Shown here piece after piece: positions 48,486-62,290 of a stretch of DNA of 64,000 nt (position 1 is the stretch's first letter; each line of letters starts with the position of its first letter). A model generated the notes under the pieces. It saw nothing but the letters and a program-made list of their open reading frames with translations, was not told where the DNA came from and ran no database searches. This DNA comes from an uncultured Candidatus Saccharibacteria bacterium. Its GTDB lineage: Bacteria; Patescibacteriota; Minisyncoccia; Phycocordibacterales; VMEP01. The translations under genes were made by a program, and so were the position numbers. Where the stretch lies: the NCBI GenBank assembly GCA_964579635.1, contig CAZOFV010000003.1:2768-66767 (forward strand), in the 5' to 3' direction.

Positions 48486-49058
48486 ATGTTTATTAAAGAC
48501 AGAATTCAAACATCTATTGATACAAAGAAGCGTCTATTGGATGACGTTTCTATTATTAGTATTGCAGAAGATATAACTAAAGCTATAACCGAAAGTTACG
48601 AAAAAGGGAATAAGACTCTTTGGTGTGGAAATGGGGGAAGTGCTGCCGATGCTCAACACCTGGCCGCTGAACTTTCTGGTAAATATTATTTTGATCGCGA
48701 ACCACTTTCTTCTGAGGCTCTTCATGTTAATACTTCTTATCTTACGGCTGTGGCAAACGATTACTCATACGATATTGTTTACGCAAGGCTAGTAAAAGCC
48801 ACTGGGAAAAAGGGAGATGTTTTAGTTGGGCTTTCTACTTCAGGAAATTCAAAAAATGTTGTTCTTGCGTTAGAAGAGGCTAAAAAAATAGGAATGATCA
48901 CAGTCGGGTTTACTGGAGAGAAACCATCTAAAATGGATTCACTTTGTGACTATTTAATAAAAATACCCTCAGTTGATACTCCACGCATACAGGAATGCCA
49001 CATGTTATTGGGACATTCAATTTGTGAAGGAGTTGAGCAAAATCTTTTTGGTGTGTAA
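48486..49058 (+). CDS. gmhA: D-sedoheptulose-7-phosphate isomerase (SIS domain)
   Basis: LWCGNGGSAADAQHLAAEL and GLSTSGNS, the GmhA signatures. Confidence 0.85.
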   Translation: MFIKDRIQTSIDTKKRLLDDVSIISIAEDITKAITESYEKGNKTLWCGNGGSAADAQHLAAELSGKYYFDREPLSSEALHVNTSYLTAVANDYSYDIVYARLVKATGKKGDVLVGLSTSGNSKNVVLALEEAKKIGMITVGFTGEKPSKMDSLCDYLIKIPSVDTPRIQECHMLLGHSICEGVEQNLFGV

Positions 49059-49062
49059 TTTT

Positions 49063-49938
49063 TTATTTTGTAAATATTTTCCCTTTATAGTTTTCGTTTT
49101 CTGTCTTTACTCTCCACATATAAAGAGGAATAAAACAGACGTGACTATTTTTGAATGTTTCAGCAACGTGGAAGTTAAAATCCTTATCGGCACCTCTTCC
49201 CATAAACGATGGCCAGACTCTATTTTCAAGATTTCTAAATTTCACTTTTTCAATAACTTCTCGTTTAAAAAGGGGAGAGTTCCCAGCTCCAGGATAGTTT
49301 TCATATGACCCAAAAAATAATCTATGAATAATCCTTTTTCTTTTTAGGTGAAACGGTATTATTTTGTTTAACTTAACTGAAATTTTCGCAATTAGACCTT
49401 TTGATCTTTGGGACATTAAGTATAAATCATTTGGATAAAGTATTTTTAGATTTTCTAAAAATACCTCTACTGATAACTCTTTGTTAAGATATTTTTCGTC
49501 AAACTGTATCCAATCAAGGGTTAAATGACTCGAATTATTTTTTTGAAGTAAATTGAGCTGAATCTCTATCCGGTTAAGAAAAGAAGCGTCGTCTGCATCT
49601 TGAAATGTTATCAATTCTCCTTTGGCGTGTTTAAAACCAGTATTTCTTGCTGAGTATCCAGCATTTATGTTTCGATTTAATTTTTTATCAAAGCGTAATG
49701 GATCAGTTTCGCTGTTAACTAATTTTATTCTATTATCTTTTTTTATTATGTCTTGAACTACTTTTTTTGTATTATCAGTGCTTGCATCATCAACTACTAT
49801 TATCTCTATATTTTTATAAGTTTGATTAATTATTGAATCAAGTGCAATAGCTATTGTTTTTTCACAATTATAAACAGGGATAATTACACTGATTAGTGGT
49901 TTTTCTTTTGTTGACTCTTTATTAAGATTGAAACTCAT
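49063..49938 (-). CDS. Glycosyltransferase family 2
   Basis: ISVIIPVYNCEKTIAIALDSIINQTYKNIEIIVVDDASTDNT. Confidence 0.8.
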   Translation of the reverse strand: MSFNLNKESTKEKPLISVIIPVYNCEKTIAIALDSIINQTYKNIEIIVVDDASTDNTKKVVQDIIKKDNRIKLVNSETDPLRFDKKLNRNINAGYSARNTGFKHAKGELITFQDADDASFLNRIEIQLNLLQKNNSSHLTLDWIQFDEKYLNKELSVEVFLENLKILYPNDLYLMSQRSKGLIAKISVKLNKIIPFHLKRKRIIHRLFFGSYENYPGAGNSPLFKREVIEKVKFRNLENRVWPSFMGRGADKDFNFHVAETFKNSHVCFIPLYMWRVKTENENYKGKIFTK

Positions 49939-51098
49939 GTATTTTTATCTAGTTTTAATACTTCATCAATAAATTTTGCATAAGCCTCGGAAAAAGTTTC
50001 CCTGGTATATGTTTTTCTGGCATATTTCCATACTGAAATAGATTTTTCAATAATTTCTTCTTGTGGGGTGTTTGAGAATTCTTTAACTATTTTTGAAATT
50101 GATAATGGTGTAGGGTTTTCTAATGGTACATATTCAGCATCTTCTTTTATCCCTGTTTCATGCGTAATTATTGGTATAAGTCCAGCATGCATAGCTTGAA
50201 CAACAGCACCAGAAGAACCTTCTCCTCCAGATGGGTAAATTAAGGCAGAACATTTTTCGACAATTTCCGCAAATTGTTTACCTCCAACGTCGATACGTCC
50301 GTAATAGTGTATATTCGGTGTTTCGTATAATTCCTTTTTGTAGATTTTAACGAAATCATCTTCTGCTGAAACTGGCCCACAAACATGAAGGTGTAAATCA
50401 GGCATCATTGTGAATGCTTCAAGTGTTAAGTCTAATCCCTTGAGGACTGCGCCACCGCCACCGACCCATAAATAATTTTTTCTAGCTTTGTCCCAGTCTT
50501 TTTTTTCAGGGAAATCAAATTTTACTACAGCTGAAATTGGTATAAAAAATATAGGTTTATTGAAACGCTCAAAGGTTGCAAATATTGTCTTATTTCCAAA
50601 CCCTTCAAGAAAATCGGCAGTTTCCGTGTTTTCCGTCGGAGACATTTTTCTTCTTGGGATAAGTTTAACACCGCGCCTTTTTTCTAGTTGATTAAGACGA
50701 TCTTGCTCGGCTTTGTTATAAGCTTCCCAGTGAGACATTAATATGTGAAATACTTTCTTGCATTTTTGTGGGAGGATTTCGGAAAGACGTTTTAAGTTTT
50801 TATCAGTGTCTATACATACTACGTATTTTTTTCGAGGCTTAAATGATGTATTTTTTGAATCAATTATGTCAACTTCGTAACCTCTTTCTGAAAAAAGTCT
50901 TGCAATTTCATAACACTCCCAGTACATGGTATGTATATTTGAAAAAGACTCCCAAGGGGTAAGGGTAAATGGTTCTGTAATATAAGAAATTAAAACATCG
51001 CCCCTCTTTTTACCAACCGGCTTCATAGTAACAACTCCAAAAAGTTTATTGGTTACCTTGTTTTTATATGCCCAATAAATAGCAGTTATCTTATTCAT
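49935..51098 (-). CDS. Glycosyltransferase (GT-B, GT4-like)
   Basis: LIYPSGGEGSSGAVVQAMHAGLIPIITHETG. Confidence 0.65.
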   Translation of the reverse strand: MNKITAIYWAYKNKVTNKLFGVVTMKPVGKKRGDVLISYITEPFTLTPWESFSNIHTMYWECYEIARLFSERGYEVDIIDSKNTSFKPRKKYVVCIDTDKNLKRLSEILPQKCKKVFHILMSHWEAYNKAEQDRLNQLEKRRGVKLIPRRKMSPTENTETADFLEGFGNKTIFATFERFNKPIFFIPISAVVKFDFPEKKDWDKARKNYLWVGGGGAVLKGLDLTLEAFTMMPDLHLHVCGPVSAEDDFVKIYKKELYETPNIHYYGRIDVGGKQFAEIVEKCSALIYPSGGEGSSGAVVQAMHAGLIPIITHETGIKEDAEYVPLENPTPLSISKIVKEFSNTPQEEIIEKSISVWKYARKTYTRETFSEAYAKFIDEVLKLDKNT

Positions 51099-52857
51099 GG
51101 TATTTTTGATGGTGTTTAAACCAAAGTGCTAAACAAAACAAAGACCATATTTTATAAGGATTACTACTCTCGTCTTTATTTGAGTTATTTAAAATATTCA
51201 GCAATTCTTTTTTATTAAAAAGTTCGTTTAACTGTTGGTTTTCGTTTATGGTGTTTTTGACTATTTGTTTAAAACTTTCTATCTGTAGCCACTCTTTTAC
51301 AGGAGCACCAAAACCCTGCTTTCTTCTGTAGACAAATTCTTTTGGCATGATTTCAGTTAATATGTCTTTTAGTATTATTTTCCCACCTTTTTTGTTTACT
51401 TTGTATTTTTCTGGAAGATTATATATGAATTCCGCCATTTTGTGGTCTAAGAAAGGGGATCGAACCTCAAGTCCATGCATCATGCTCATTCGATCTATTT
51501 TAACAAGAAGTTGTCCGGGTAGGTATGTTTCTATGTCAAAATTATTTATTGCTTTTATTTTATTTACATTTGTTTTTTCGTTATGTTTTTCAATATCCTC
51601 GTTTAAAAAAGAATGATTTTTCCATAGATTAATACGTTCTTTTTTTGAAAATATTGCTACATGTTTTAAGTATTCTTTAAATTGATTCGAAAAAAGTACG
51701 TTTTTTAAGTAAATAAGTTTGTTTGTATTCCAGTATTTCCAGTACCAGCCATATCCCATAAGTAATTCATCGGCACCATCGCCAGATATAGCCACTTTAA
51801 CATTTGAAGAGGTTAGTTCCGATATTAGATGTTGAGAAATGTTTGAAGAGTCAGCGTGTGGTTCATCTAGGTATTCCATCACTTTGTTAATCTCTTTAAG
51901 AATTAGTTCGCTTTTTGTTTGTAGTGTGTAATGTTTTGTTCCTATTTTTTCAGATGCTTGTTTTGCGAAAGGAAGTTCATTTATATACCCCTCATAACCA
52001 ACAGAGAATGTTTTTATTGGCGTACTGGTGTATTTTTGTGCATAAGCTGTTGCGATGGTTGAATCAACACCACCAGAAAGGAAACTGCCTATTTCAACAT
52101 CGGCTACCATCCTCTTCTTTACAGCATCATTAAATAATACTTTTAACTTTTCTTTTGCGTTTTCGTAAGTTATTTCGATTGGTTTATCTTCTAGTTTCCA
52201 ATATTGCCAAGTTTTTATTTCCCCATTTTTCACAACACCTGCATGTGCCGGAAGAAGAGTGTGTATGTTTGAATAGATTGTTTTCCACGGTGGTATATAT
52301 GAAAGTTGTAAATAATTATCAAGTGTTTTTTTATCAATTATTCCTTTTATTAGGTTGCTAGCAAAAATTGCTTTAATTTCTGAGGCACCCAAAAAGGTGT
52401 CATTAACCCATGCATAATAGAATGGTTTTTTGCCAAATCGGTCACGAGCTATAAACAACTCCTTTTTTTCATTATTCCAAATAGAAAAAGAAAACATACC
52501 ATCTAGGTGTTGTGGGCAATCATTGCCATATTCTACGTATGCTTTTAGGATTACCTCGGTATCTGAGTTTGTAGAAAAAACATGTCCAATTTTCTCCAAT
52601 TCTTTTTTTAATTCACGATAGTTATAAATCTCTCCGTTAAAAGTAATGGCGAGATCTTTTTCGTTGTCGCGCATTGGCTGGTGCCCCATATTAATGTCTA
52701 TAATCGAAAGGCGGGTTTGTCCTAAAATACACTCCGGAAATTTTAAAACACCGTTATCGTCTGGTCCGCGCTTAGACAACGACAAAATCATTCCCTTGAT
52801 ATTTTCATCAGAGAAATCATTTATGTTTTTTCCGGTAATGCTAATTATTCCACACAT
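51091..52857 (-). CDS. asnB: Asparagine synthase (glutamine-hydrolysing)-like amidotransferase
   Basis: MCGI N-terminal nucleophile Cys and SGGVDS PP-loop. 588 aa. Its location suggests a glycan amidotransferase role (WbpS-like) rather than housekeeping AsnB. Confidence 0.8.
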   Translation of the reverse strand: MCGIISITGKNINDFSDENIKGMILSLSKRGPDDNGVLKFPECILGQTRLSIIDINMGHQPMRDNEKDLAITFNGEIYNYRELKKELEKIGHVFSTNSDTEVILKAYVEYGNDCPQHLDGMFSFSIWNNEKKELFIARDRFGKKPFYYAWVNDTFLGASEIKAIFASNLIKGIIDKKTLDNYLQLSYIPPWKTIYSNIHTLLPAHAGVVKNGEIKTWQYWKLEDKPIEITYENAKEKLKVLFNDAVKKRMVADVEIGSFLSGGVDSTIATAYAQKYTSTPIKTFSVGYEGYINELPFAKQASEKIGTKHYTLQTKSELILKEINKVMEYLDEPHADSSNISQHLISELTSSNVKVAISGDGADELLMGYGWYWKYWNTNKLIYLKNVLFSNQFKEYLKHVAIFSKKERINLWKNHSFLNEDIEKHNEKTNVNKIKAINNFDIETYLPGQLLVKIDRMSMMHGLEVRSPFLDHKMAEFIYNLPEKYKVNKKGGKIILKDILTEIMPKEFVYRRKQGFGAPVKEWLQIESFKQIVKNTINENQQLNELFNKKELLNILNNSNKDESSNPYKIWSLFCLALWFKHHQKYHE

Positions 52858-52864
52858 ATAATAT

Positions 52865-53755
52865 TTAAATTTTTATCCAGCTGTTTGGTATTAAATCGAC
52901 AGTATTATTTTTAGGAGCATTTGCGAACCATTTTTGAGGGGCGATAACTATTTTTTCTTTACTAGGGTTTAACCAGGCACCCCACCAACTGAAACTACTA
53001 TTTGCAATAATATGGTGTTTACACTTGGACATCAATATTAAATCCTCGGCATTTTTATCATTATCGTTTTCCACTAATGTGAAATTGTATTCTAGCCCTT
53101 TAAGTTTCGGTAAAAAATTTTCTATAACCCAGGGATAATTATCTGAAAAAATAAAAAAATTAGGAGAAGGCACCTTGGATGCAATTTGGTTTATAGCTTC
53201 TATGTAATATTCTGCGGAACAGAATCCATGCCAAGGCCTAATGTGTTCCGATGCATATCTTCGCACGTGAATTGATACAGAATTTGTTTCTTCAATTTTT
53301 TTTAATAGCTCTAGGCTATGTGTTGAAAATGGTGCTTTTAGTGTTATTTCTTTTCGTATTTCATCTGCTATGTCTTTAAAATACTTTTCGCTTTGCCAAA
53401 AACCCTCAAAGTACAAAGCTTTTGATGAAAATACTTCTTGGTCGTATGTGAATGTTTTTTCTCCATAGTACCAAGGTTTTATTATTTTTTTTAACCTTAA
53501 TCGATGGTATAAAAAATTAAAAAACGCATTATGTTTACGTAACCAAACGAATCCACCCAAATCTGATTCTTTTGCGATATTTTCCTTTATATTGAATTTC
53601 GATAACCCATATGGATCGGCGGTGTAATAGGTATAAAATGGCGTTACATCCAAAGCAAAATCAATTTTCCTTTTTGACGATAGTGCTCGGGCGAAGGCGT
53701 ATTGGAATATTTGATTACATAAACCACCATTAAGTTTTACAATTAGTTTTTTCAC
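52865..53755 (-). CDS. Glycosyltransferase family 11 (alpha-1,2-fucosyltransferase, FutC/WbsJ-like)
   Basis: LNGGLCNQIFQYAF, SIHVRRYASEH (motif I) and ANSSFSWWGAWL (motif IV). Confidence 0.8.
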   Translation of the reverse strand: MKKLIVKLNGGLCNQIFQYAFARALSSKRKIDFALDVTPFYTYYTADPYGLSKFNIKENIAKESDLGGFVWLRKHNAFFNFLYHRLRLKKIIKPWYYGEKTFTYDQEVFSSKALYFEGFWQSEKYFKDIADEIRKEITLKAPFSTHSLELLKKIEETNSVSIHVRRYASEHIRPWHGFCSAEYYIEAINQIASKVPSPNFFIFSDNYPWVIENFLPKLKGLEYNFTLVENDNDKNAEDLILMSKCKHHIIANSSFSWWGAWLNPSKEKIVIAPQKWFANAPKNNTVDLIPNSWIKI

Positions 53756-54660
53756 GATAGTTTTTTTGTTAATTTTTTAATATATTTTCTAATATTTCTT
53801 TCTTTTGTGTGGATTATAAATGCTCTTGGTAGTCGTATTGTGAGTAATATAATAGCTAATATTTTATATTTAGTTCCATTGAGTGCCTCTATATGTCCTT
53901 TTAAATACGGCCAAAATCTACCAAAAGGGAACATGTGGTTTTTTGGGTTTTTAAATTGCATAGCCGTAACTATTTCATTTTCTTTATGTATTGATAGTTG
54001 GGGACTAGATGCGCCACCAAGCCTTTTTTTAAAGAGTGGTTTTTGGTCAACGACAACACTGAATCTGCTTATAGCCGCTAAACTAAACATATAGTCTTGC
54101 CCCCAAACGTTTCTTTGGGGGTATACTTCCCACACTTTTTTTAATACTTCAGTTTTGAAAAGCGAGTACATTAAATTACATTTGCCGAGGATTTCTGGTT
54201 GAAGAATATATTTTGCTACCTGTAGATATCCGGGTTTCCCGGAAAGGTTTGTCATCCAAATGGCTTCTATTAATGTGCGACCAAAAGAGTCGATTGCGGT
54301 TGTACAGGTTGTGGCTAATCCAAGGTCTTTGTCGTCTTTAAAGTGCCCCAGGCACGTTTCTAGATATTTTTCTTCCCATAAGTCGTCTTGAGCAGCCCAC
54401 ATAAAATACTCCGTGTTTGCCTTGTCGAGAACAAATTTAAAATTAGCAAACATCCCTATATTTTTTTCTTGCTTAAAATAGGTGATTCGTGAATCGTCTT
54501 TTACAAATTCTTTACATATCGTTTCCGTACTATCGGTAGATGAGTCGTCAGATATAAAAATTTTCCAGTCGGTAAAAGTTTGGGCGCGCAAAGAATTAAT
54601 CGCTTCTTTTAGAAATCGTTCACCGTTATATACAGGCATTCCAATAAATATTTTTGTCAT
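53752..54660 (-). CDS. Glycosyltransferase family 2
   Basis: IFIGMPVYNGERFLKEAINSLRAQTFTDWKIFISDDSSTDST. Confidence 0.8.
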   Translation of the reverse strand: MTKIFIGMPVYNGERFLKEAINSLRAQTFTDWKIFISDDSSTDSTETICKEFVKDDSRITYFKQEKNIGMFANFKFVLDKANTEYFMWAAQDDLWEEKYLETCLGHFKDDKDLGLATTCTTAIDSFGRTLIEAIWMTNLSGKPGYLQVAKYILQPEILGKCNLMYSLFKTEVLKKVWEVYPQRNVWGQDYMFSLAAISRFSVVVDQKPLFKKRLGGASSPQLSIHKENEIVTAMQFKNPKNHMFPFGRFWPYLKGHIEALNGTKYKILAIILLTIRLPRAFIIHTKERNIRKYIKKLTKKLS

Positions 54661-55326
54661 CTACTTTATTTTTTTAAGATATCCTCTCGTGTTGAATGTC
54701 GTATCTTTGCCAAACATGTCACATAATTTATTGTCTACTATAAAATCGTCATTTGTTTTCAAGAATTCGTTGATTGCTTTTAGCGGGCCACCGTTAAGTG
54801 GCTTATCTCTTTTAAGTCTAGTTACTATTCCGTCCTCTATTATTAAATATGACCCAACTGGAATTAATTTAGAAAAAGTTTTTATTGTTTCTAAGGTATC
54901 TTTATATAAATGAGAGGCATCATCAATAACAATTATTTTCTTAAATTTATTTACATTATTTAAATCATACTTTTTCCAGCCATCTGTAAAAAATTTTATA
55001 CGAGGGTGTTGTTTTGTTTTTTTATCCACGCGGTCTTCTATATCAATTGTGTGGATTTCACCATGACCAATTGCATCCATTAGGTCAGCAAGATAAAGAG
55101 ATGTTCCTCCAAAATTTGTTCCGATTTCAATAACCAGATCAGGCTTAATTTCAGATAACAGCATTTGGTATATTACATAATCAAAAGGGCACTTAAGGGC
55201 GGGAATTCCTCTGTAAGTTACATTAAAGTGTCCACTATAAATATCCCAAACGCTATATGAACCCATAAGGTATTTTAGGACAGCGTTTCTTTTTGCGTTA
55301 TAAAAATTTTTTATTTTATGTTCCAT
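54661..55326 (-). CDS. CmcI-family class I SAM-dependent methyltransferase (rhamnosyl O-methyltransferase / cephalosporin hydroxylase family)
   Basis: ALKCPFDYVIYQMLL...LVIEIGTNFGGTSLYLADL resembles Pfam CmcI. Adjacent to the wzt ABC ATPase. Confidence 0.65.
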   Translation of the reverse strand: MEHKIKNFYNAKRNAVLKYLMGSYSVWDIYSGHFNVTYRGIPALKCPFDYVIYQMLLSEIKPDLVIEIGTNFGGTSLYLADLMDAIGHGEIHTIDIEDRVDKKTKQHPRIKFFTDGWKKYDLNNVNKFKKIIVIDDASHLYKDTLETIKTFSKLIPVGSYLIIEDGIVTRLKRDKPLNGGPLKAINEFLKTNDDFIVDNKLCDMFGKDTTFNTRGYLKKIK

Positions 55327-56627
55327 TTTAATTTAGGCCTTACAACACCAGGGATGCGTTGGTTGAAATCATTCTTCTTTGCAGTTTCAAGGTTTGCCAT
55401 GACCTGGAAAACAAGCGCATCTTGTTTATAGAAATGTACTTTAAGCGGAAGCATTGTTGAAAGAGCAACCCCAGCTATGTAGGTACCCTCGTTCAATAGG
55501 TTTGCTGGTATCCATGCAATAGCCTTATGTCTTCCAGCAACATCTAATTTTTCATCTAAATCAGAATGGCTAATAAACGCATATTCACCAGCACTAGTGA
55601 ATATATGAATGTTTGGTACAAGATTTTGATTATTTTGCAAAACATCAAATTCCATTTCTATGCCAATTTCCTTGTCTGAAAGAACAAATGATATATCCTC
55701 TCCTTCATTATTTATTATTTTTGCTTTTATGAGTTTAGCGACATCATTGCCAATATTTTTATCAATTAAATCAATTGATGTTGCGTTACTGTTTTTGTCA
55801 TTTAGGTAATGTGCTACGACATCTTTCGTTTCCCCAATTATTTTTACTTTACCTTTTTCTAAAAGAATACATCTTTTGCACAGATTTTGTATTGCCGCCA
55901 TATTGTGGCTTACAAAAAGAATAGTACGTCCTGATTTTTTTGTAACCTCTTCCATTTTCCCTAAACATTTTTTCTGGAATTCAGCATCACCGACGGCGAG
56001 AACCTCATCAACTAAGAGAATATCTGGCTCCATGTGGGCAGCAACAGAGAAGGCGAGGCGAACATACATTCCACTCGAATAGTATTTAACAGGTGTATCA
56101 AGAAATTTATCAATGCCAGCAAAAGCAACTATTTCATCGAATTTTTTAACAATTTCTTTTTTTGTCATTCCCAAGATTGCTCCGTTGAGAAAAATATTTT
56201 CTCTCCCGGTAAGTTCTGGGTGAAAACCAGTACCAACTTCAAGTAGGGAAGCTACCTTACCTTTCATTTTAATTTCTCCTGTGGTTGGTGGAGTTATTCC
56301 TGTGAGAATTTTTAGAAGTGTTGATTTACCAGCACCGTTGTGTCCAATAATTCCAACCACTTCTCCTGGTTCAATATTAAAGCTGACGTCTTTAAGAGCC
56401 CAAAAATCTTCTTTTGTATCAATACCAGCAATTTCTTTTGCTTTCTTTTTTAAGAAAAATAAAGGACGTTTGATAATAGCGGTAAGCACATCCCGTAGCG
56501 CTACATAGTTACCACGGTGATGGTTTATTGTGTATTTTTTCCCTAAATTTTTTACTTCGATAATATTATTATTCATGTTTTTATGCGATATCAGCAAAAT
56601 ACCTTTCCACTTTTTTAAAATAAACAA
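55311..56627 (-). CDS. wzt: Polysaccharide ABC exporter ATP-binding protein (Wzt/TagH-like) with C-terminal carbohydrate-binding extension
   Basis: GIIGHNGAGKSTLLK Walker A, LSSGMYVRLAF signature, about 190 aa extra C-terminal domain. Confidence 0.85.
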   Translation of the reverse strand: MFILKKWKGILLISHKNMNNNIIEVKNLGKKYTINHHRGNYVALRDVLTAIIKRPLFFLKKKAKEIAGIDTKEDFWALKDVSFNIEPGEVVGIIGHNGAGKSTLLKILTGITPPTTGEIKMKGKVASLLEVGTGFHPELTGRENIFLNGAILGMTKKEIVKKFDEIVAFAGIDKFLDTPVKYYSSGMYVRLAFSVAAHMEPDILLVDEVLAVGDAEFQKKCLGKMEEVTKKSGRTILFVSHNMAAIQNLCKRCILLEKGKVKIIGETKDVVAHYLNDKNSNATSIDLIDKNIGNDVAKLIKAKIINNEGEDISFVLSDKEIGIEMEFDVLQNNQNLVPNIHIFTSAGEYAFISHSDLDEKLDVAGRHKAIAWIPANLLNEGTYIAGVALSTMLPLKVHFYKQDALVFQVMANLETAKKNDFNQRIPGVVRPKLKWNIK

Positions 56628-57402
56628 CTCCTATGGCAAGTAGCACTGCACACGCCGTGAATGAAATTCCAATAAGCGTCCAATTGATTGGCGCAGTTCC
56701 TAAAATTCCTGCACGTGCTGACTGAATGACACCCATCATAGGGTTGAAGGCAAGAATCCATGAATATTTTCCGGCGATACTTGCTGGATAAATTACTGGA
56801 GTTAAGAACATTAGTATTTGAATAAAGAACGGTAAAACATAGCGCACGTCGCGATATTTCACATTAATTGCGGCGAGAAATAATCCGCCACCAACCGAAG
56901 CCATAAAGGTTATTGCAAGTAGGAGAGGGAGAATAAATAAACCTGAAAGATGTGGTGTGTAGCCATAATAAATCATCATTCCTATCAGAATTACTGAAGC
57001 TATCGCAAAATCGACAAGTTTTGTTGCAACAGAAGCCAAAGGAAGAATTAGGCGTGGAAAATACACCTTGGTTATTATTGATTGATTACTAATAAGGACA
57101 CTACTTGTTTCTGAAAGTGCACTAGAAAAAAATTGCCAAAAAAGAAGTCCTGTGTACACAAAGATTGGATACGGCACATTATCAGATGGAATTTTTAACA
57201 GTGTCCCAAAGAAAACACTAAAAACAACCATTGTCATGAACGGCTGGAATACTGCCCAGCCAATACCTATGATGGTTTGTTTGTATCGTACTTTAAAATC
57301 ACGCCATACGAAAAAATAAAGAAGCTCCTTATAGTCCCAGAGTTCTTTGAAATCTCTTACGCTTAGAACTTTTTTCGGTTTTATAATTGTTGTAGTAGTC
57401 AT
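56581..57402 (-). CDS. wzm: ABC-2 type polysaccharide exporter permease (Wzm/KpsM-like)
   Basis: Six TM helices and ABC-2 family architecture. Overlaps wzt. Confidence 0.8.
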   Translation of the reverse strand: MTTTTIIKPKKVLSVRDFKELWDYKELLYFFVWRDFKVRYKQTIIGIGWAVFQPFMTMVVFSVFFGTLLKIPSDNVPYPIFVYTGLLFWQFFSSALSETSSVLISNQSIITKVYFPRLILPLASVATKLVDFAIASVILIGMMIYYGYTPHLSGLFILPLLLAITFMASVGGGLFLAAINVKYRDVRYVLPFFIQILMFLTPVIYPASIAGKYSWILAFNPMMGVIQSARAGILGTAPINWTLIGISFTACAVLLAIGVVYFKKVERYFADIA

Positions 57403-57410
57403 TTTTTACT

Positions 57411-58361
57411 TTATGAATTTTTAACTTTATCTAACTTTTGACTATCTTTATACCATTCGTATGTTTTTTTAATTCCATCGTCTATGTTTATTTTATGTTT
57501 CCAGCCAAGTTTATGTAATTTAGAAACGTCTAGGAGTTTTCTTGGTGTGCCATCTGGTTTTGATTTATCCCAAACAATTTTTCCGGAATAACCAGATACT
57601 TTTTTAATTTTTTCAACCAAAGATTTTATAGAAAGATCTGCCCCAGTACCAATATTTACTATCTCCGATTCATTGTAGTTTTGCATAAGGAATAAACAAG
57701 CATCGGCCAGATCGTCTACGTGTAAGAATTCTCTTTTTGGAGATCCTGTTCCCCAAATAACAATTTCTTTATTATTTTTTTCCCGTGCTTCATGAAATCT
57801 TTGAATGAGAGCTGGAAAAACATGGGATGTTACAGGGTCAAAATTATCATTTGGGCCGTAAAGATTTGTTGGCATTACGGAAATAAAGTTTGTGCCGTAT
57901 TGTTTGTTGTATGATTGGCACATAGTTATCCCCGCAATCTTTGCTATAACGTATGCTTTATTTGTTGGTTCTGGTTCGCTGGTTAAGAGGTATTTTTCCT
58001 TGATTGGTTGTGGTGCCATTCTTGGATAAATACAAGAACTTCCTAGAAAAAGTAGTTTTTTTACCTGAGAAATATATGCAGAGTGTATTATATTGTTTTG
58101 TATTATCAAATTTTCATAAATAAAAGATGCTGGATAGGTATTGTTCGCAAGTATTCCGCCAACTTTTGCTGCCGCCAAAAATACATATTCTGGATTTTCT
58201 TTTTTAAAGAATTCAGCAACCTTTTTTTGATCCATTAAATCTAATTCTTTTCGTGTTTTGAGAACTAGGTTTTTGTAACCTTTTTTGTTTAGTAGTCTTA
58301 CGATAGCTGAGCCAACAAGCCCATTGTGTCCAGCTACATAAATTTTTGATGTTTTCTTCAT
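57411..58361 (-). CDS. fcl: GDP-L-fucose synthase (GDP-4-keto-6-deoxy-D-mannose 3,5-epimerase/4-reductase)
   Basis: [15 protein letters not shown], YxxxK region and 316 aa. Confidence 0.85.
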
Positions 58362-58378
58362 GTCCTATAAGTTATAGT

Positions 58379-59482
58379 CTACATTACCATACGTTCTTTT
58401 TCTAAATCCGATTCGGTCATTAATTTAACAAGCTCTTTGAATTTTATCTTTGGTTTCCACCCGAGTTTATTTTTTGCTTTTGAATAATCTCCCTTGAGGA
58501 CATCCACCTCTGCTGGGCGGAAGTATCTTGGGTCGATTTCGATTATTGTTTTTCCAGTTTTTTTATCAATACCTTTTTCGTTTGATCCTTTCCCCTTCCA
58601 TACAATATCCATTCCAAGTATTTTTCCAGCTTCTTCAACAAACTCTCTAACACTGTGTGATTCGTTGGTAGCTAAAATAAAATCATCTGGTTCCTTGTGT
58701 TGCAACATAAGCCACATTCCGTAAACATAATCTTTTGCGTGGCCCCAGTCGCGCATAGCATCAAGGTTTCCAAGATATAATTTTTGTTCTTTGCCGAGCT
58801 TGATACGGGAAAGACCTTGGGTGATTTTTCTTGTAACAAAAGTTTCTCCACGTCTTTCACTTTCGTGGTTAAACAGAATTCCGTTTGAGGCAAACATTCC
58901 GTAGCTCTCACGATAGTTTTTTGTTATCCAATATGCATAAACTTTTGCCACACCGTATGGTGAGCGTGGATGGAAAGGAGTCGTTTCTTTAAGTGGTATT
59001 TCTTTCGCCTTACCAAACATTTCACTTGAAGATGCTTGGTAAAATTTTGTTTTACTTAAACCAGCTTCTCTCATTGCATCAAGAAGACGGATTGTTCCAA
59101 GGCCCGTGACGTCGCCCGTGTATTCTGGAATATCAAAACTAACGCGTACGTGACTCTGTGCTCCAAGGTGATAAATTTCATCTGGTTTTATTTTGTTTAA
59201 AACTCGGTTTAAGTTGCTTGAGTCTGAGAGGTCTCCAAAGTGCAGAAAAAATTTATTATTTGATTTATGTGGGTCGTTATAAATATGATCTATTTTTTGT
59301 GTATTGAAGTTGCTAGCGCGACGAATAAGCCCGTGCACTTCATATCCTTTTTCTAAAAGTAATTCAGCTAAATACGAACCATCTTGTCCGGTGATACCAG
59401 TGATAAGAGCTACTTTATTTTTTGTTGACACTTTATTGCTATTTTTTTTATTTGTTATTTTTTTCATTTTTTTGCCTACCAC
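58379..59482 (-). CDS. gmd: GDP-mannose 4,6-dehydratase
   Basis: [37 protein letters not shown] is the canonical Gmd N-terminus. Confidence 0.92.
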
Positions 59483-59724
59483 TTATTTATTTTATTAACC
59501 ACTTTCTTTTTAATTTTTAAATAAGATTGAGTTGCTTCTTTTTCCAGGTCAGGGGAGAGGATACGGAGGAGTTCTTTTCCCATAATTCTGTATTGCCCGC
59601 CGACTTTGTTGGCACGAATGAGGCCGTTTTTAAGCATGCGTTTTACAGTGCTATCGCTTATTTTAAGAATTGTTTGTGTTTCCGCTGTGGTATATACAGC
59701 ATTTGGGTGTATCTCCTGATTCAT
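59476..59724 (-). CDS. Small helix-turn-helix DNA-binding protein (HTH_17/excisionase-type)
   Basis: [38 protein letters not shown]. Overlaps the gmd start by 7 nt. Confidence 0.65.
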
Positions 59725-59754
59725 AATTTATTAAGTATTAGTAAAAAGGGTAGA

Positions 59755-59781
59755 AGTGTCAATAAGTGTCAAAAAGTGTCA
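59755..59781. promoter_or_regulatory. Three AGTGTCA direct repeats with exact 10 bp periodicity in the divergent promoter region
   Basis: AGTGTCAATA AGTGTCAAAA AGTGTCATTT, lying between the HTH gene start (59724, minus strand) and the plus-strand gene at 59845. Confidence 0.5.
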
Positions 59782-59844
59782 TTTTCTCGACTCTACTATA
59801 TAACAACTCTTAGGAATAAAAAGTTACCTTAAGTAAGGTGCTAT

Positions 59845-60786
59845 TTGGTTTATTGGGTATTTAATGATAGAAATAACTTAAATTTAAATTATACTGCAAA
59901 AGATAAAATGGCTTTTTATATGAGGCGACCATGGGGGAGAATGTGGAAACTTGTTAACCATAAAAATTTTTGGGTTAAATTTCTTGTGGTCGGTGGGCAG
60001 ACAAGCCTGCAGAGTCATAATCATCGTACTGAATGGCAACTTGGGGTTTTTAAGGTTACCCCTAAAAATAAACACTACGTGCTTCCGGGCGCATATTTTA
60101 GAATAGTTCGTGGCAAGGGGGTTCAAGGAACCGAGGAAGACGACAAGCATCACGAATGGCATGTTGGTTTTTATAGAGTGAAACCAAAAGAGAAACACCG
60201 CTTGCTTCGTGGTGTCTATCTTGAATTTGTACACGGTAGCGCTGCCGACGAAGGAGATATTGTTCGATATGAAGATGATTACAGTAGAACAGGGGAAGAC
60301 AGCGAACAAATAAACGAGAAAGAAAAAATAGTTGTGGTGAGCGGGGGATTTGACCCTATACACGTAGGTCACTTGGAAATGTTTGAAGAAGCTAAAGCTT
60401 TAGGAGATAAGCTCGTTGTAGTGATTAATTGTGATGCATGGCTCATTCGCAAAAAAGGAAAATATTTCATGAATCAAAATGATCGCGCAACACTTATAAA
60501 AGGAATTAAGCATGTAGACGATGTTTTTATTTTGGAAACTGACCGTGATGATGTTGGTGAGGCAATTGAAAAAATACGCCCACACATTTTTGCTAACGGA
60601 GGTGACAGAAAAGATGAGAACGCAATACCAGAAGCGAAGATTTGTAAAGAACTAGGGGTGGAAATGGTTTTTAATATTGGGAAAAGCGGAAAGGTCCGTT
60701 CAAGCTCAGAACTTTTGGAAGATTATATAAAAAAGGACGGTAAAAAAACTGCACGCGGAGATTTTTCTTGGCAAAAAAACGTATAG
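59845..60786 (+). CDS. Bifunctional cupin (mannose-6-phosphate isomerase type II-like) / cytidylyltransferase-like nucleotidyltransferase; start codon uncertain
   Basis: N-terminal half has VVGGQTSLQSHNHRTEWQ (PMI-type cupin motif) and an internal duplicated motif W-x-[LV]G-[VF]-[FY]-[KR]V-x-PK-x-KH. C-terminal half has VVSGGFDPIHVGHLEMF (HxGH nucleotidyltransferase). Confidence 0.6.
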   Translation: MVYWVFNDRNNLNLNYTAKDKMAFYMRRPWGRMWKLVNHKNFWVKFLVVGGQTSLQSHNHRTEWQLGVFKVTPKNKHYVLPGAYFRIVRGKGVQGTEEDDKHHEWHVGFYRVKPKEKHRLLRGVYLEFVHGSAADEGDIVRYEDDYSRTGEDSEQINEKEKIVVVSGGFDPIHVGHLEMFEEAKALGDKLVVVINCDAWLIRKKGKYFMNQNDRATLIKGIKHVDDVFILETDRDDVGEAIEKIRPHIFANGGDRKDENAIPEAKICKELGVEMVFNIGKSGKVRSSSELLEDYIKKDGKKTARGDFSWQKNV

Positions 60787-60828
60787 AAAAGTATAATCCC
60801 TTGAGTATTAAGTGTTTTTGGTAAAATT

Positions 60829-60874
60829 CCCCACCCCCAATCCATGTGCTATAGCATATGGATTGGGGGTGGGG
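60829..60874. repeat. 46 bp near-perfect palindrome CCCCACCCCCAATCCATGTGCTATAGCATATGGATTGGGGGTGGGG
   Basis: Self-complementary sequence. A near-identical copy lies downstream of the PaaX-like gene. Confidence 0.6.
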
Positions 60875-60903
60875 TAAAATTAGTATAAATTTAATAAAGG
60901 CAC

Positions 60904-61473
60904 ATGGGAGTACTTGAAAAAGAATCAAAAAAGAGGGCACAAAAAGAAAATGTACAAAAAATTATTTTGTCTGTTATTAAGGGGGCTGGGATATTAAGTG
61001 TTGCGTTAATTTCACCGAGTGTTGTTGGCGCATTTAATAAATTAGGAATTATTAGAAGAGACAATTATTGGGTAAAACGTTCTATCGATCGGCTTGTTGA
61101 AAAAGGATTAATAAAGTTTGAAAAAACAGAAAAGGGAAATTTTTTTCGCCTTACCACTGAGGGCGAAAGACGTTTATATCAAATGTATGACAAAGGAGAG
61201 TTACCAAGGCCAAGAAAATGGGATGGTAAATGGAGAATTATTATTTACGACCTTAAGGAAGAACGGAAAGCACTTAGGGAAAAATTAAGGAGAACAATAG
61301 AAAGTTTTGGTTTTTTGAAACTACAGGATAGTGTCTGGGTATATCCATATGATTGCGAGGATTTAATTACTCTAATGAAGGCTGATTTTAAAATAGGGAA
61401 GGACGTACTTTATATAATTGCCGATAAAGTAGAAAATGATAAATTTCTCAAAAAAGAATTCGGTATTTTGTGA
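60904..61473 (+). CDS. PaaX-like transcriptional regulator (winged-helix plus PaaX_C-like domain)
   Basis: KWDGKWRIIIYDLKEERKALREKLRRTIESFGFLKLQDSVWVYPYD matches the PaaX C-terminal W.G.W..V.YD.PE..R.....L...GF..LQ.SVW..P pattern. Confidence 0.55.
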   Translation: MGVLEKESKKRAQKENVQKIILSVIKGAGILSVALISPSVVGAFNKLGIIRRDNYWVKRSIDRLVEKGLIKFEKTEKGNFFRLTTEGERRLYQMYDKGELPRPRKWDGKWRIIIYDLKEERKALREKLRRTIESFGFLKLQDSVWVYPYDCEDLITLMKADFKIGKDVLYIIADKVENDKFLKKEFGIL

Positions 61474-61502
61474 TTGTATTCGAGTTTAGATTGTAAAAGT
61501 AA

Positions 61503-61542
61503 CACCTCCAATCCACGTGCTATAGCACGTGGATTGGAGGTG
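61503..61542. repeat. 40 bp perfect palindrome CACCTCCAATCCACGTGCTATAGCACGTGGATTGGAGGTG
   Basis: Shares the core CCAATCCA-yr-TGCTATAGCA-yr-TGGATTGG with the palindrome at 60829-60874. Confidence 0.6.
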
Positions 61543-61642
61543 TGGAGAGGCGAATATTGGAATCTGACAAAGAATCGAAAAATGAGTTATCCACAGAAGT
61601 GGTAGTGAGGGAAGGGAAATGAGGTGGGTTGTTTGGTAAAAT

Positions 61643-62290
61643 TTGGGGAATATGTCCATTTTAAACTGGGGGTGGAGAAAAATTTTGTTACGAGCGCTCG
61701 CCGTTATTTTTATTATTTATGTTGTGTTGGTAATTTATCGAGCTTTTCATTTTTGGAATTTAGAGAAAACAAATAAACAGGTTGAAAAAATACATTCAAC
61801 TAAACTCACATTAGATGATGTGTTTGGTAGAAATTTACCACCAGACCCTGGGGCGGAAGCTGATAAGACAGTTGCGGGAATTGATGCTAACACGAACGGA
61901 ATTCGTGATGATGTAGAAATCGCAATTTTTAAAGAATATCCAAACTCGGCCAAGACGAGGGCGGTGTTGCTTCAATATGCGCTGGCCCTACAGATGGAAG
62001 TAACTCAGCCGATGGTGAATACGGAAACAGTGACAGAAGTGGCAACAGAAAGTAGTCGAGCAGATACATGCCTTGCTGATACTCTTGTGCCAAGAAAAAG
62101 TCCCGAATCATCAAGAGATAATGTTGCTATAGAAGAGATAGATAAATATATCAACTTTGTGAAAAACAAGCAGTTGAATACTGAAACAAGAGAAAATGCC
62201 CACAGGGATTTTTATCGAGGAAATCTTGGGAGTTATGGTGAATCAACAAACATGGTGTGTGACATAGATCCTTCTACTCTGCCAAATTAG
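61643..62290 (+). CDS. Hypothetical membrane-anchored protein
   Basis: N-terminal TM helix LLRALAVIFIIYVVLVIY. No recognised domain. Confidence 0.4.
   Translation: MGNMSILNWGWRKILLRALAVIFIIYVVLVIYRAFHFWNLEKTNKQVEKIHSTKLTLDDVFGRNLPPDPGAEADKTVAGIDANTNGIRDDVEIAIFKEYPNSAKTRAVLLQYALALQMEVTQPMVNTETVTEVATESSRADTCLADTLVPRKSPESSRDNVAIEEIDKYINFVKNKQLNTETRENAHRDFYRGNLGSYGESTNMVCDIDPSTLPN

Follow-up and report, generated by a model that had tools for sequence, protein, structure and literature searches.

The closest described system to the one analyzed here is that of PaaX, whose operator in E. coli has the form TGATTC-N27-GAATCA and which represses its own promoter by steric hindrance of the RNA polymerase (review PMC9493321). 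Here we examine a gene encoding a PaaX-like protein of 189 amino acids, and the two long palindromes that bracket it, in a stretch of 64,000 nucleotides (the window hereafter) from contig CAZOFV010000003.1 of an uncultured Candidatus Saccharibacteria bacterium. The encoded protein shares with PaaX an N-terminal winged helix followed by a Cas2-like middle domain (PaaX_M), and its best structural match is PaaX itself (8a39). The sites around its gene also resemble the PaaX operator in spanning about 40 bp and in having inverted half-sites of 6 bp, the gap between half-sites being 26 bp in the family of the window protein and N27 in PaaX.

The initial annotation of the locus had proposed that the palindromes could be operators of a dimeric regulator, recombination sites marking the gene as a cassette, or structural elements of the repetitive extragenic palindromic (REP) type. 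Of these options the first is the one favored by our results, on account of the covariation between the recognition helix and the sites, the -10 element adjacent to the upstream site and the PaaX-like geometry. The two palindromes, called P1 and P2, are an instance, in its fully symmetric version, of the pair of PaaX-type dyad sites found throughout the family, and we consider it fairly probable, judging from comparative sequence evidence, that they are operators bound by the dimer of the encoded protein, the upstream one autoregulating the gene. A literature search, which included palindromes and PaaX- or Cas2-like proteins in Patescibacteria, found no prior description of such an arrangement of a gene with paired dyads.

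Two dyad-symmetric sites bracket the gene

The features of the locus, in window coordinates, are the following:

60829-60874, no strand: upstream site P1, a quasi-perfect palindrome of 46 bp with arms of 23 nt and its dyad between 60851 and 60852
60833-60838: outer half-site ACCCCC on the left of P1 (positions 19-14 from the dyad), mirrored by GGGGGT at 60865-60870
60848-60855, no strand: dyad core of P1, GCTATAGC, invariant in the orthologues although the arms differ
60875-60880, + strand: putative -10 hexamer (TAAAAT) immediately next to P1, its first base 23 nt from the dyad, with a predicted transcription start at about 60887
60904-61473, + strand: the family gene, whose product of 189 amino acids comprises a helix at the N-terminus, a winged helix with 55-66 as the predicted recognition helix, and a Cas2-like domain (110-173)
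61502-61543, no strand: downstream site P2, a perfect palindrome of 42 bp with its dyad between 61522 and 61523
61504-61509 and 61536-61541: half-sites of P2, ACCTCC and GGAGGT respectively
61519-61526, no strand: core of P2, GCTATAGC

Both palindromes are real and non-random, and both lie where the initial annotation had placed them, except that P2 is one base longer on each side. Their description as perfect holds for P2 over its 42 bp and fails for P1, where 22 of the 23 arm positions pair and the lone exception is G60846 opposite T60857 (a G·T mismatch). The spacing of about 30 bp between the sites and either end of the gene was confirmed, with 29 nt from the end of P1 to the ATG (60904) and 28 nt from the stop codon (61471-61473) to the start of P2. 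P1 and P2 are the longest inverted repeats in the window, and the core of 30 bp common to both, CCAATCCAnnTGCTATAGCAnnTGGATTGG, occurs exactly twice in the 64 kb with up to three mismatches allowed (0 occurrences in 100 shuffles). Dispersal of the palindrome in dozens of copies, which the initial annotation had named as evidence against its reading, was not seen in these 64 kb, where the exact palindrome has two copies only. Folded as single strands, P1 and P2 reach about -37 to -44 kcal/mol on either strand (z-scores between -7.5 and -10.4). Where P1 and P2 differ, at positions 16 (C/T) and 7 (T/C) from the dyad, the change is present on each of the two arms, and symmetry has therefore been maintained.

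The site pair is a family-wide feature

The window protein belongs to a family of proteins of about 190 amino acids that comprises 2,166 protein clusters, many of them named "Cas2" or "PaaX" by their sources, with more than 580 matches among GTDB species genomes; as far as sampled, the family is found in metagenome-assembled genomes of Patescibacteria only. All four syntenic orthologues, as well as a paralogue in another context, present a long GCTATAGC-centred palindrome on each flank. Orthologous loci keeping the gene hence keep the flanking palindromes, their absence at such loci being what the initial annotation had named as evidence against its reading. The arms of these palindromes are unrelated between loci and match within each locus, in the orthologues and the paralogue alike. 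In alignments of the loci, conservation is restricted to the gene, the centres of the palindromes and a hexamer (TAAAAT or TAAGAT) immediately 3' of the upstream palindrome, the other intergenic sequence having diverged. The contrast previously drawn between GC-rich arms and AT-rich flanks is correct for this allele and is not general, because the arms differ completely in close orthologues.

A survey unbiased with respect to the arms covered 85 family genes, whose loci were reached through the protein (80 GTDB loci plus the loci of encoding contigs). Of the 81 family genes classified, 22 have palindromes with arms of at least 12 nt on both flanks, 21 on a single flank and 38 on neither. We defined a class core as (G/A/C)C-(TATA, GATC, GACC, GGTC, GGCC, GATA or TATC)-G(C/T/G), and such a core is present in the 150 nt upstream of 72 of the 85 genes and in the 150 nt downstream of 70 of 83, where 0.13 per 150 bp would be expected. 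Genes lacking palindromes with arms of at least 12 nt still carry a less symmetric form of the element. The median distances are 48 nt from the dyad to the ATG and 46 nt from the stop codon to the dyad, and arm complementarity averages 12.0 of 16 positions at family cores compared with 4.4 of 16 at control cores.

What emerges from the survey is a tripartite site of about 40 bp, in which the core is separated by a variable spacer from an outer half-site at positions 19-14, whose consensus is cATACAC. Such conserved blocks, kept at a constant distance from each other, are typical of sites bound by proteins and not of hairpins. Of 134 sites, 35 have a fully complementary spacer, when about one would be expected, and the spacers of the remainder are only mildly symmetric; the palindromes of the window therefore represent a minority state of the tripartite site, of which perfect palindromy is not the hallmark.

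The class palindromes also leave a mark on assemblies. The Logan unitigs that contain the gene (L001-L004 and L007) all end inside the perfect downstream palindrome, and several JGI contigs (L105, L139, L147 and others) start or end inside class palindromes, which makes these palindromes systematic breakpoints for metagenome assemblers.

Covariation between the recognition helix and the half-sites

The divergence of the half-sites tracks that of protein residues 50-90, with a partial r of 0.275 controlling for the C-terminal domain that was reached in none of 2000 permutations. No correlation was found between half-site divergence and the C-terminal domain once the winged helix was accounted for, nor between spacer divergence and any protein region. 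When 186 protein columns were scanned blindly for mutual information with 18 site positions, residues 55, 56 and 59 ranked first. These residues (i, i+1 and i+4) occupy one face at the start of the predicted helix 55-66 and have site positions 14-18 as their partners; equally variable columns elsewhere in the protein give mutual information about four-fold lower. At residue 56, Tyr or Phe is accompanied by a TACGT half-site in 10 of 13 cases and any other amino acid in 1 of 85 (Fisher p = 2e-10), a pairing that holds in two different helix subfamilies. Covariation focused in this manner on one helix face would be hard to explain otherwise than by the protein reading the site. It provides, together with the site model of about 40 bp, a first predicted residue-to-base recognition code for this family.

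Loci L012 and L009 present the same association on a local scale. Their flanks are 100% identical, and they differ (L012, 4100-4700) in the upstream site and in the 5' two-thirds of the gene, which code for the winged helix. This difference reflects either allele replacement by recombination or the co-assembly of two strains. The only other difference between the two is a patch over the HTH_17 gene, with 59-93% identity.

The encoded protein

Profile searches with the window protein yielded a match to the Pfam family PaaX_M ("PaaX central Cas2-like domain") with 71.4 bits (cutoff 24; 6.7e-20), weak matches to winged-helix Pfam models, and no Pfam match to PaaX_C in a protein that ends at residue 189. 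The NCBIfam equivalog of PaaX (TIGR02277) scored 48.9 bits, compared with a cutoff of 264.55, and the NCBIfam cas2 model (TIGR01573) passed marginally over residues 110-150 (27.6 bits, cutoff 24.5). The PaaX-like winged-helix gene of the initial annotation does have PaaX_M and the winged helix, and is not a PaaX orthologue, given the lack of PaaX_C and the score far below the equivalog cutoff.

An AlphaFold2 model built from 120 homologues (pLDDT 74.6; an earlier model from 22 sequences was weak, with pLDDT 63) predicts a long N-terminal helix, a winged helix in which helix 55-66 is followed by a beta-hairpin, and a beta-alpha-beta-beta-alpha-beta domain. The nearest structures found by Foldseek were PaaX of E. 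coli (8a39, E = 7.8e-6), Rv0674 (3kfw) and a PaaX-like regulator (3l09), with MarR and PadR regulators and Cas2 chains ranking lower. The C-terminal domain is near-invariant, with 21 invariant positions in the 120 sequences, and the winged helix is variable. Among the invariant positions of that domain are D116, aligned with the catalytic Asp of Cas2, as well as Tyr, Glu, Lys and Arg residues; no His is invariant among the 120 family sequences. No match of the window protein to the Y1/HUH family was found in Pfam, NCBIfam, PADLOC or PHROGs, the last two giving just weak matches to Cas2 and to regulator-like proteins.

No CRISPR array was found in the 64 kb of the window and no Cas1 Pfam family among the called genes of L001-L012. 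The encoded protein is neither PaaX nor a CRISPR Cas2, and the label "CRISPR-associated endonuclease Cas2" borne by many such genes of Patescibacteria does not denote a CRISPR component. Family genes recur within genomes, 11 genomes having two or three family loci each among the 80 loci listed. What the analysis delineates is a large family of regulators, present as several paralogues in each genome, in a group whose transcription control is almost uncharted.

A putative promoter beside the upstream site

The putative -10 hexamer abutting P1 is kept as TAAAAT or TAAGAT at equal offset in L005, L009 and L012. Across the family, -10-like hexamers peak at 21-23 nt from the dyad at upstream sites and in the direction of the gene only (18 of 91, compared with 1, 3 and 7 in three controls), and many family genes are apparently leaderless or nearly so. 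The dyad of P1 is predicted to lie near -36 relative to the predicted start.

Two further promoter-like signals were considered. At 60768-60797, over the end of the cytidylyltransferase-like gene and directed towards P1, is a near-consensus sigma-70-type promoter (TTGGCA-18-TATAAT, matching at 11 of 12 positions). The orthologues do not keep its -10, and if this promoter were active P1 would also be a hairpin in the 5' untranslated region. A TATAAT within the arms, found in 20 of 74 palindromes at a distance of exactly 7 nt from the dyad, was rejected as a general promoter; it does not occur in the window, and is more readily understood as a variant form of half-site plus spacer.

Solo sites and stability of the locus

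A metagenome scan with TATWATNNNGCTATAGCNNNATWATA returned 98 stretches, with 102 determinable palindromes of which 52 adjoin a family gene and 50 lie in ordinary intergenic regions of every gene arrangement. The arms of solo palindromes within one contig differ between sites. The loci of the arm-unbiased survey, 1.25 Mb in total, contain 21 class sites of the solo kind, or about 1 per 60 kb, mostly between co-directional genes. Comparison with the half-site of the family gene in their own locus placed 6 of 18 solo sites at or above the 95th percentile of other-locus comparisons. Such solo sites may serve the regulators as additional targets, and for a REP family they are neither numerous nor uniform enough.

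Some class sites have unusual neighbors. In L056 (11752-12503) a RelB/RelE-like toxin-antitoxin pair lies between two GCTATAGC-centred palindromes with similar arms, 3 kb from a family gene. In L032 (1000-1455) a tRNA-Leu gene lies between two class sites, and in L171 (about 1730-1994) a class site is found 3 nt from an open reading frame whose translation resembles that of a tRNA gene.

Signs of mobility were sought in several ways. Of 39 locus pairs from diverged genomes, 38 keep the gene in place and in the same orientation, even where flank identity falls to 65-80%. Inversion between species was rejected, 38 pairs having the same orientation and the single opposite one lying in a rearranged region. 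Recent mobility was rejected as well, the gene pairs of high identity all being syntenic and no near-identical copies being found in different contexts. Flanking direct repeats of at least 4 nt, as target-site duplications would leave, occur at 1 of 108 palindromes (0.8 expected); the TAAAATT present on both sides of P1, a candidate for such a duplication, was treated as chance, being the -10 region. No family gene was found on viral contigs, and with only weak matches in PADLOC and PHROGs a phage or plasmid origin was also discarded. One case of presence and absence was found (L090 versus L068), in which the empty locus has no solo site.

Autoregulation as the favored explanation

If P1 and P2 are operators of the encoded protein, the Cas2-like domains would dimerise over the conserved GCTATAGC core and the two winged helices would reach the outer half-sites ACCYCC and GGRGGT, centred about 16 bp on either side of the dyad, with an expected footprint of about 40 bp and the same geometry as the PaaX operator. 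Because P1 lies directly against the -10 and its dyad near -36, occupancy of this site should control transcription of the gene itself, most simply through repression by occlusion of the -35/spacer region. P2 would be a second cognate site at the 3' boundary, either an auxiliary operator cooperating or looping with P1 or a roadblock insulating the single-gene unit; no helical phasing between the two dyads was detected. Full symmetry over 42-46 bp would not be needed for binding, since most family sites have non-complementary spacers. The correction of quasi-palindromes by template switching is established as quasipalindrome mutagenesis, and the perfect symmetry seen here probably stems from intrastrand template switching that symmetrised a quasi-palindrome.

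Several observations sit uneasily with a pair of simple operators. The full symmetry of the spacer, in 35 of 134 sites instead of about one, exceeds what binding needs, and some additional force must therefore be acting. Upstream and downstream arms are 0.78 identical within a gene and 0.44 between genes, the non-conserved spacer included. The asymmetries are common to both copies and mostly in direct orientation (29 direct, 9 inverted and 14 ties, in a test restricted to the 44-bp sites, the version including the flanks being uninformative), and asymmetric cores (GACC/GGTC) follow no consistent orientation rule. The downstream site is as conserved as the upstream one and has no associated -10, and 38 of 81 next genes are convergent, so that a simple promoter-operator role cannot explain it. 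Class sites occur without the gene, some of them between convergent genes, and the Cas2-like domain is conserved like an enzyme, far beyond the needs of a dimerisation module. Shared ancestry could inflate the covariation statistics. Lastly, the window protein and a 93% identical orthologue with the same recognition helix have different inner arms, just their outer C-rich half-sites being alike; this difference, together with the absence of covariation in the spacer, rules out that the protein reads the inner arms.

Alternative explanations

A first alternative keeps the same protein on the same sites and turns the sites into substrates, the Cas2-like domain nicking or cutting the GCTATAGC core and the "floxed" gene being excised, inverted or copied into other class sites. 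The arm-spacer-core-spacer-arm layout is typical of recombinase sites, one is present at each end of the gene, both are compact and about 46-48 nt from the gene ends, and they are copies of each other down to their asymmetries. The near-invariant C-terminal domain, keeping the catalytic Asp of Cas2 together with the invariant Tyr, Glu, Lys and Arg, would be explained too, and the same reading could accommodate the class sites that bracket a RelBE pair and a tRNA, the replacement of an allele in an otherwise identical background (L012/L009) and the single presence/absence case. We nevertheless regard it as unlikely. Synteny and orientation are kept in 38 of the 39 locus pairs, there are no target-site duplications, the empty locus retains no solo site, and near-identical copies are absent from different contexts and family members from viral contigs. 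The protein, moreover, has no recombinase or HUH motif, and its closest relative, PaaX, is a repressor.

A stronger version of this idea, in which the Cas2-like domain would be catalytic on the GCTATAGC core, positioned there by its own winged helices, and the gene and sites would form a self-excising, inverting or homing unit, seems to us quite unlikely. If true, such a unit would be an undescribed kind of DNA-cleaving or strand-exchanging system, a free-living relative of Cas2 with its own repeat-like sites, and catalysis could also explain the copied, perfectly symmetric site pair. The question it raises is what the Cas2-like domain, still enzyme-looking, does when on DNA.

It is equally improbable that the palindromes are hairpins independent of the protein, be they RNA stem-loops that terminate, process or stabilise the transcript, or DNA cruciforms and REP-like elements. 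Their great stability on either strand (-37 to -44 kcal/mol), the compensated changes that keep the symmetry, the 35 fully complementary spacers against 1 expected, the solo copies between convergent genes and the terminator-like appearance of P2 on the minus strand would all agree with such a role. Most family sites, however, have non-complementary spacers and yet conserved half-sites and core, and mismatches compatible with G·U pairing are about as frequent on the sense (26) as on the antisense strand (22). No T-run is found 3' of P1 or P2 on the + strand, canonical intrinsic terminators being present elsewhere in these genomes, and an Rfam scan of the window matched two tRNAs only. The half-sites, besides, covary with the recognition helix of the adjacent protein, and two copies in 64 kb fit poorly with the REP-like option of the initial annotation.

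Finally, a mobile element similar to a transposon or an integron cassette, with P1 and P2 as terminal repeats or attachment sites for an enzyme encoded elsewhere, would account for the matching repeats that bracket the gene, the several paralogues per genome in different contexts and the site-gene-site-gene-site runs of L009 and L032, and is very improbable given that synteny is stable, target-site duplications are lacking, no integrase or transposase gene is found among the called neighbors, and the sites are dyad-symmetric instead of single-ended, with half-sites that covary with the internal gene and not with a distant enzyme; the recombination-cassette option of the initial annotation lacks support.

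Genomic context

The window contains one family gene only, whose neighbors are genes for a GDP-mannose dehydratase, an epimerase, a cytidylyltransferase-like protein, an HTH_17 protein and a membrane protein; no paa catabolic genes are found among them. The contigs of the closest homologues are syntenic with the window, presenting the HTH_17 gene, the cytidylyltransferase-like gene, the family gene and the membrane-protein gene, and a 63% identical paralogue lies on the same 476-kb contig in a different context. The family gene of the window is located within a nucleotide-sugar and cell-envelope glycan cluster (48486-62290) that comprises a GmhA-like gene, the GDP-mannose dehydratase, the epimerase and the cytidylyltransferase-like gene. 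In L005 the glycan cluster around the family gene contains glycosyltransferases, a Wzm/Wzt ABC transporter and Wzy_C. This cluster is a candidate regulatory target.

Other features were observed around the gene. A perfect match to the DnaA-box consensus, TTATCCACA, lies at 61587-61595, about 55 nt upstream of the ATG of the next gene (61652); all four orthologous loci keep it, unlike the stretch that separates it from P2. Three direct GTGTCA repeats with a spacing of 10 bp (GTGTCAATAAGTGTCAAAAAGTGTCA, 59756-59781) lie between the divergent HTH_17 (excisionase-type) and cytidylyltransferase-like genes; invariant in L005, L009 and L012, they probably serve as a binding site for another regulator, which may be the HTH_17 protein. 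An extra gene for a membrane protein of 364 amino acids is present 3' of the downstream site in L103 (992-2086), and its N-terminus (MGNMSILN...), the same as that of the usual downstream gene, suggests a duplication or insertion.

Comparison with known systems

Among systems with paired or repeated palindromes, those of lambda cI between OL and OR and of the auxiliary operators of lac, gal and deo resemble the locus in having two similar cognate operators, with looping as a possibility. They are unlike it in that each region of the window has a single dyad of about 40 bp, the downstream site has no recognisable promoter and no helical phasing is apparent. The REP/REPIN-RAYT (TnpA-REP) systems also comprise a single-copy gene flanked by palindromes that vary between lineages, with extra solo intergenic copies. 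The window protein, by contrast, has no HUH-Y1 motif, solo sites number about 1 per 60 kb, the conserved part of the site is the dyad centre and not a GTAG/CGTC foot, and solo arms in one contig are unrelated. Integron attC sites are imperfect and have a GTTRRRY core and an adjacent IntI, unlike the GCTATAGC-type core and the (near-)perfect dyads seen here; no integrase is found among the listed neighbors. Unlike at intrinsic terminators, no T-run follows P1 or P2 on the + strand, and only P2 on the - strand passes a simple scan.

With Cas2 the window protein has in common the ferredoxin-like beta-alpha-beta-beta-alpha-beta domain and the conserved Asp at the end of beta-1. It differs from Cas2 in the fusion of that domain to a winged helix, and the two flanking repeats, about 670 bp apart, enclose the gene itself. 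The dyad beside the predicted promoter of its own gene, with TAAAAT 23 nt from the dyad of P1, is what an autoregulated dimeric winged-helix regulator would present.

PaaX remains the nearest of these systems. The window protein differs from it in lacking both the PaaX_C ligand-binding domain and neighboring paa genes, and in keeping Cas2-like residues that PaaX has lost, for example YD116 where PaaX has SE; its family adds the GCTATAGC core, a site on both sides of the gene and several paralogues per genome. With a gap of 26 bp here and of N27 in PaaX, the geometry of about 40 bp appears to be a trait of the architecture that joins a winged helix to a Cas2-like domain. The operator geometry of PaaX would in this way extend to a minimal two-domain relative.

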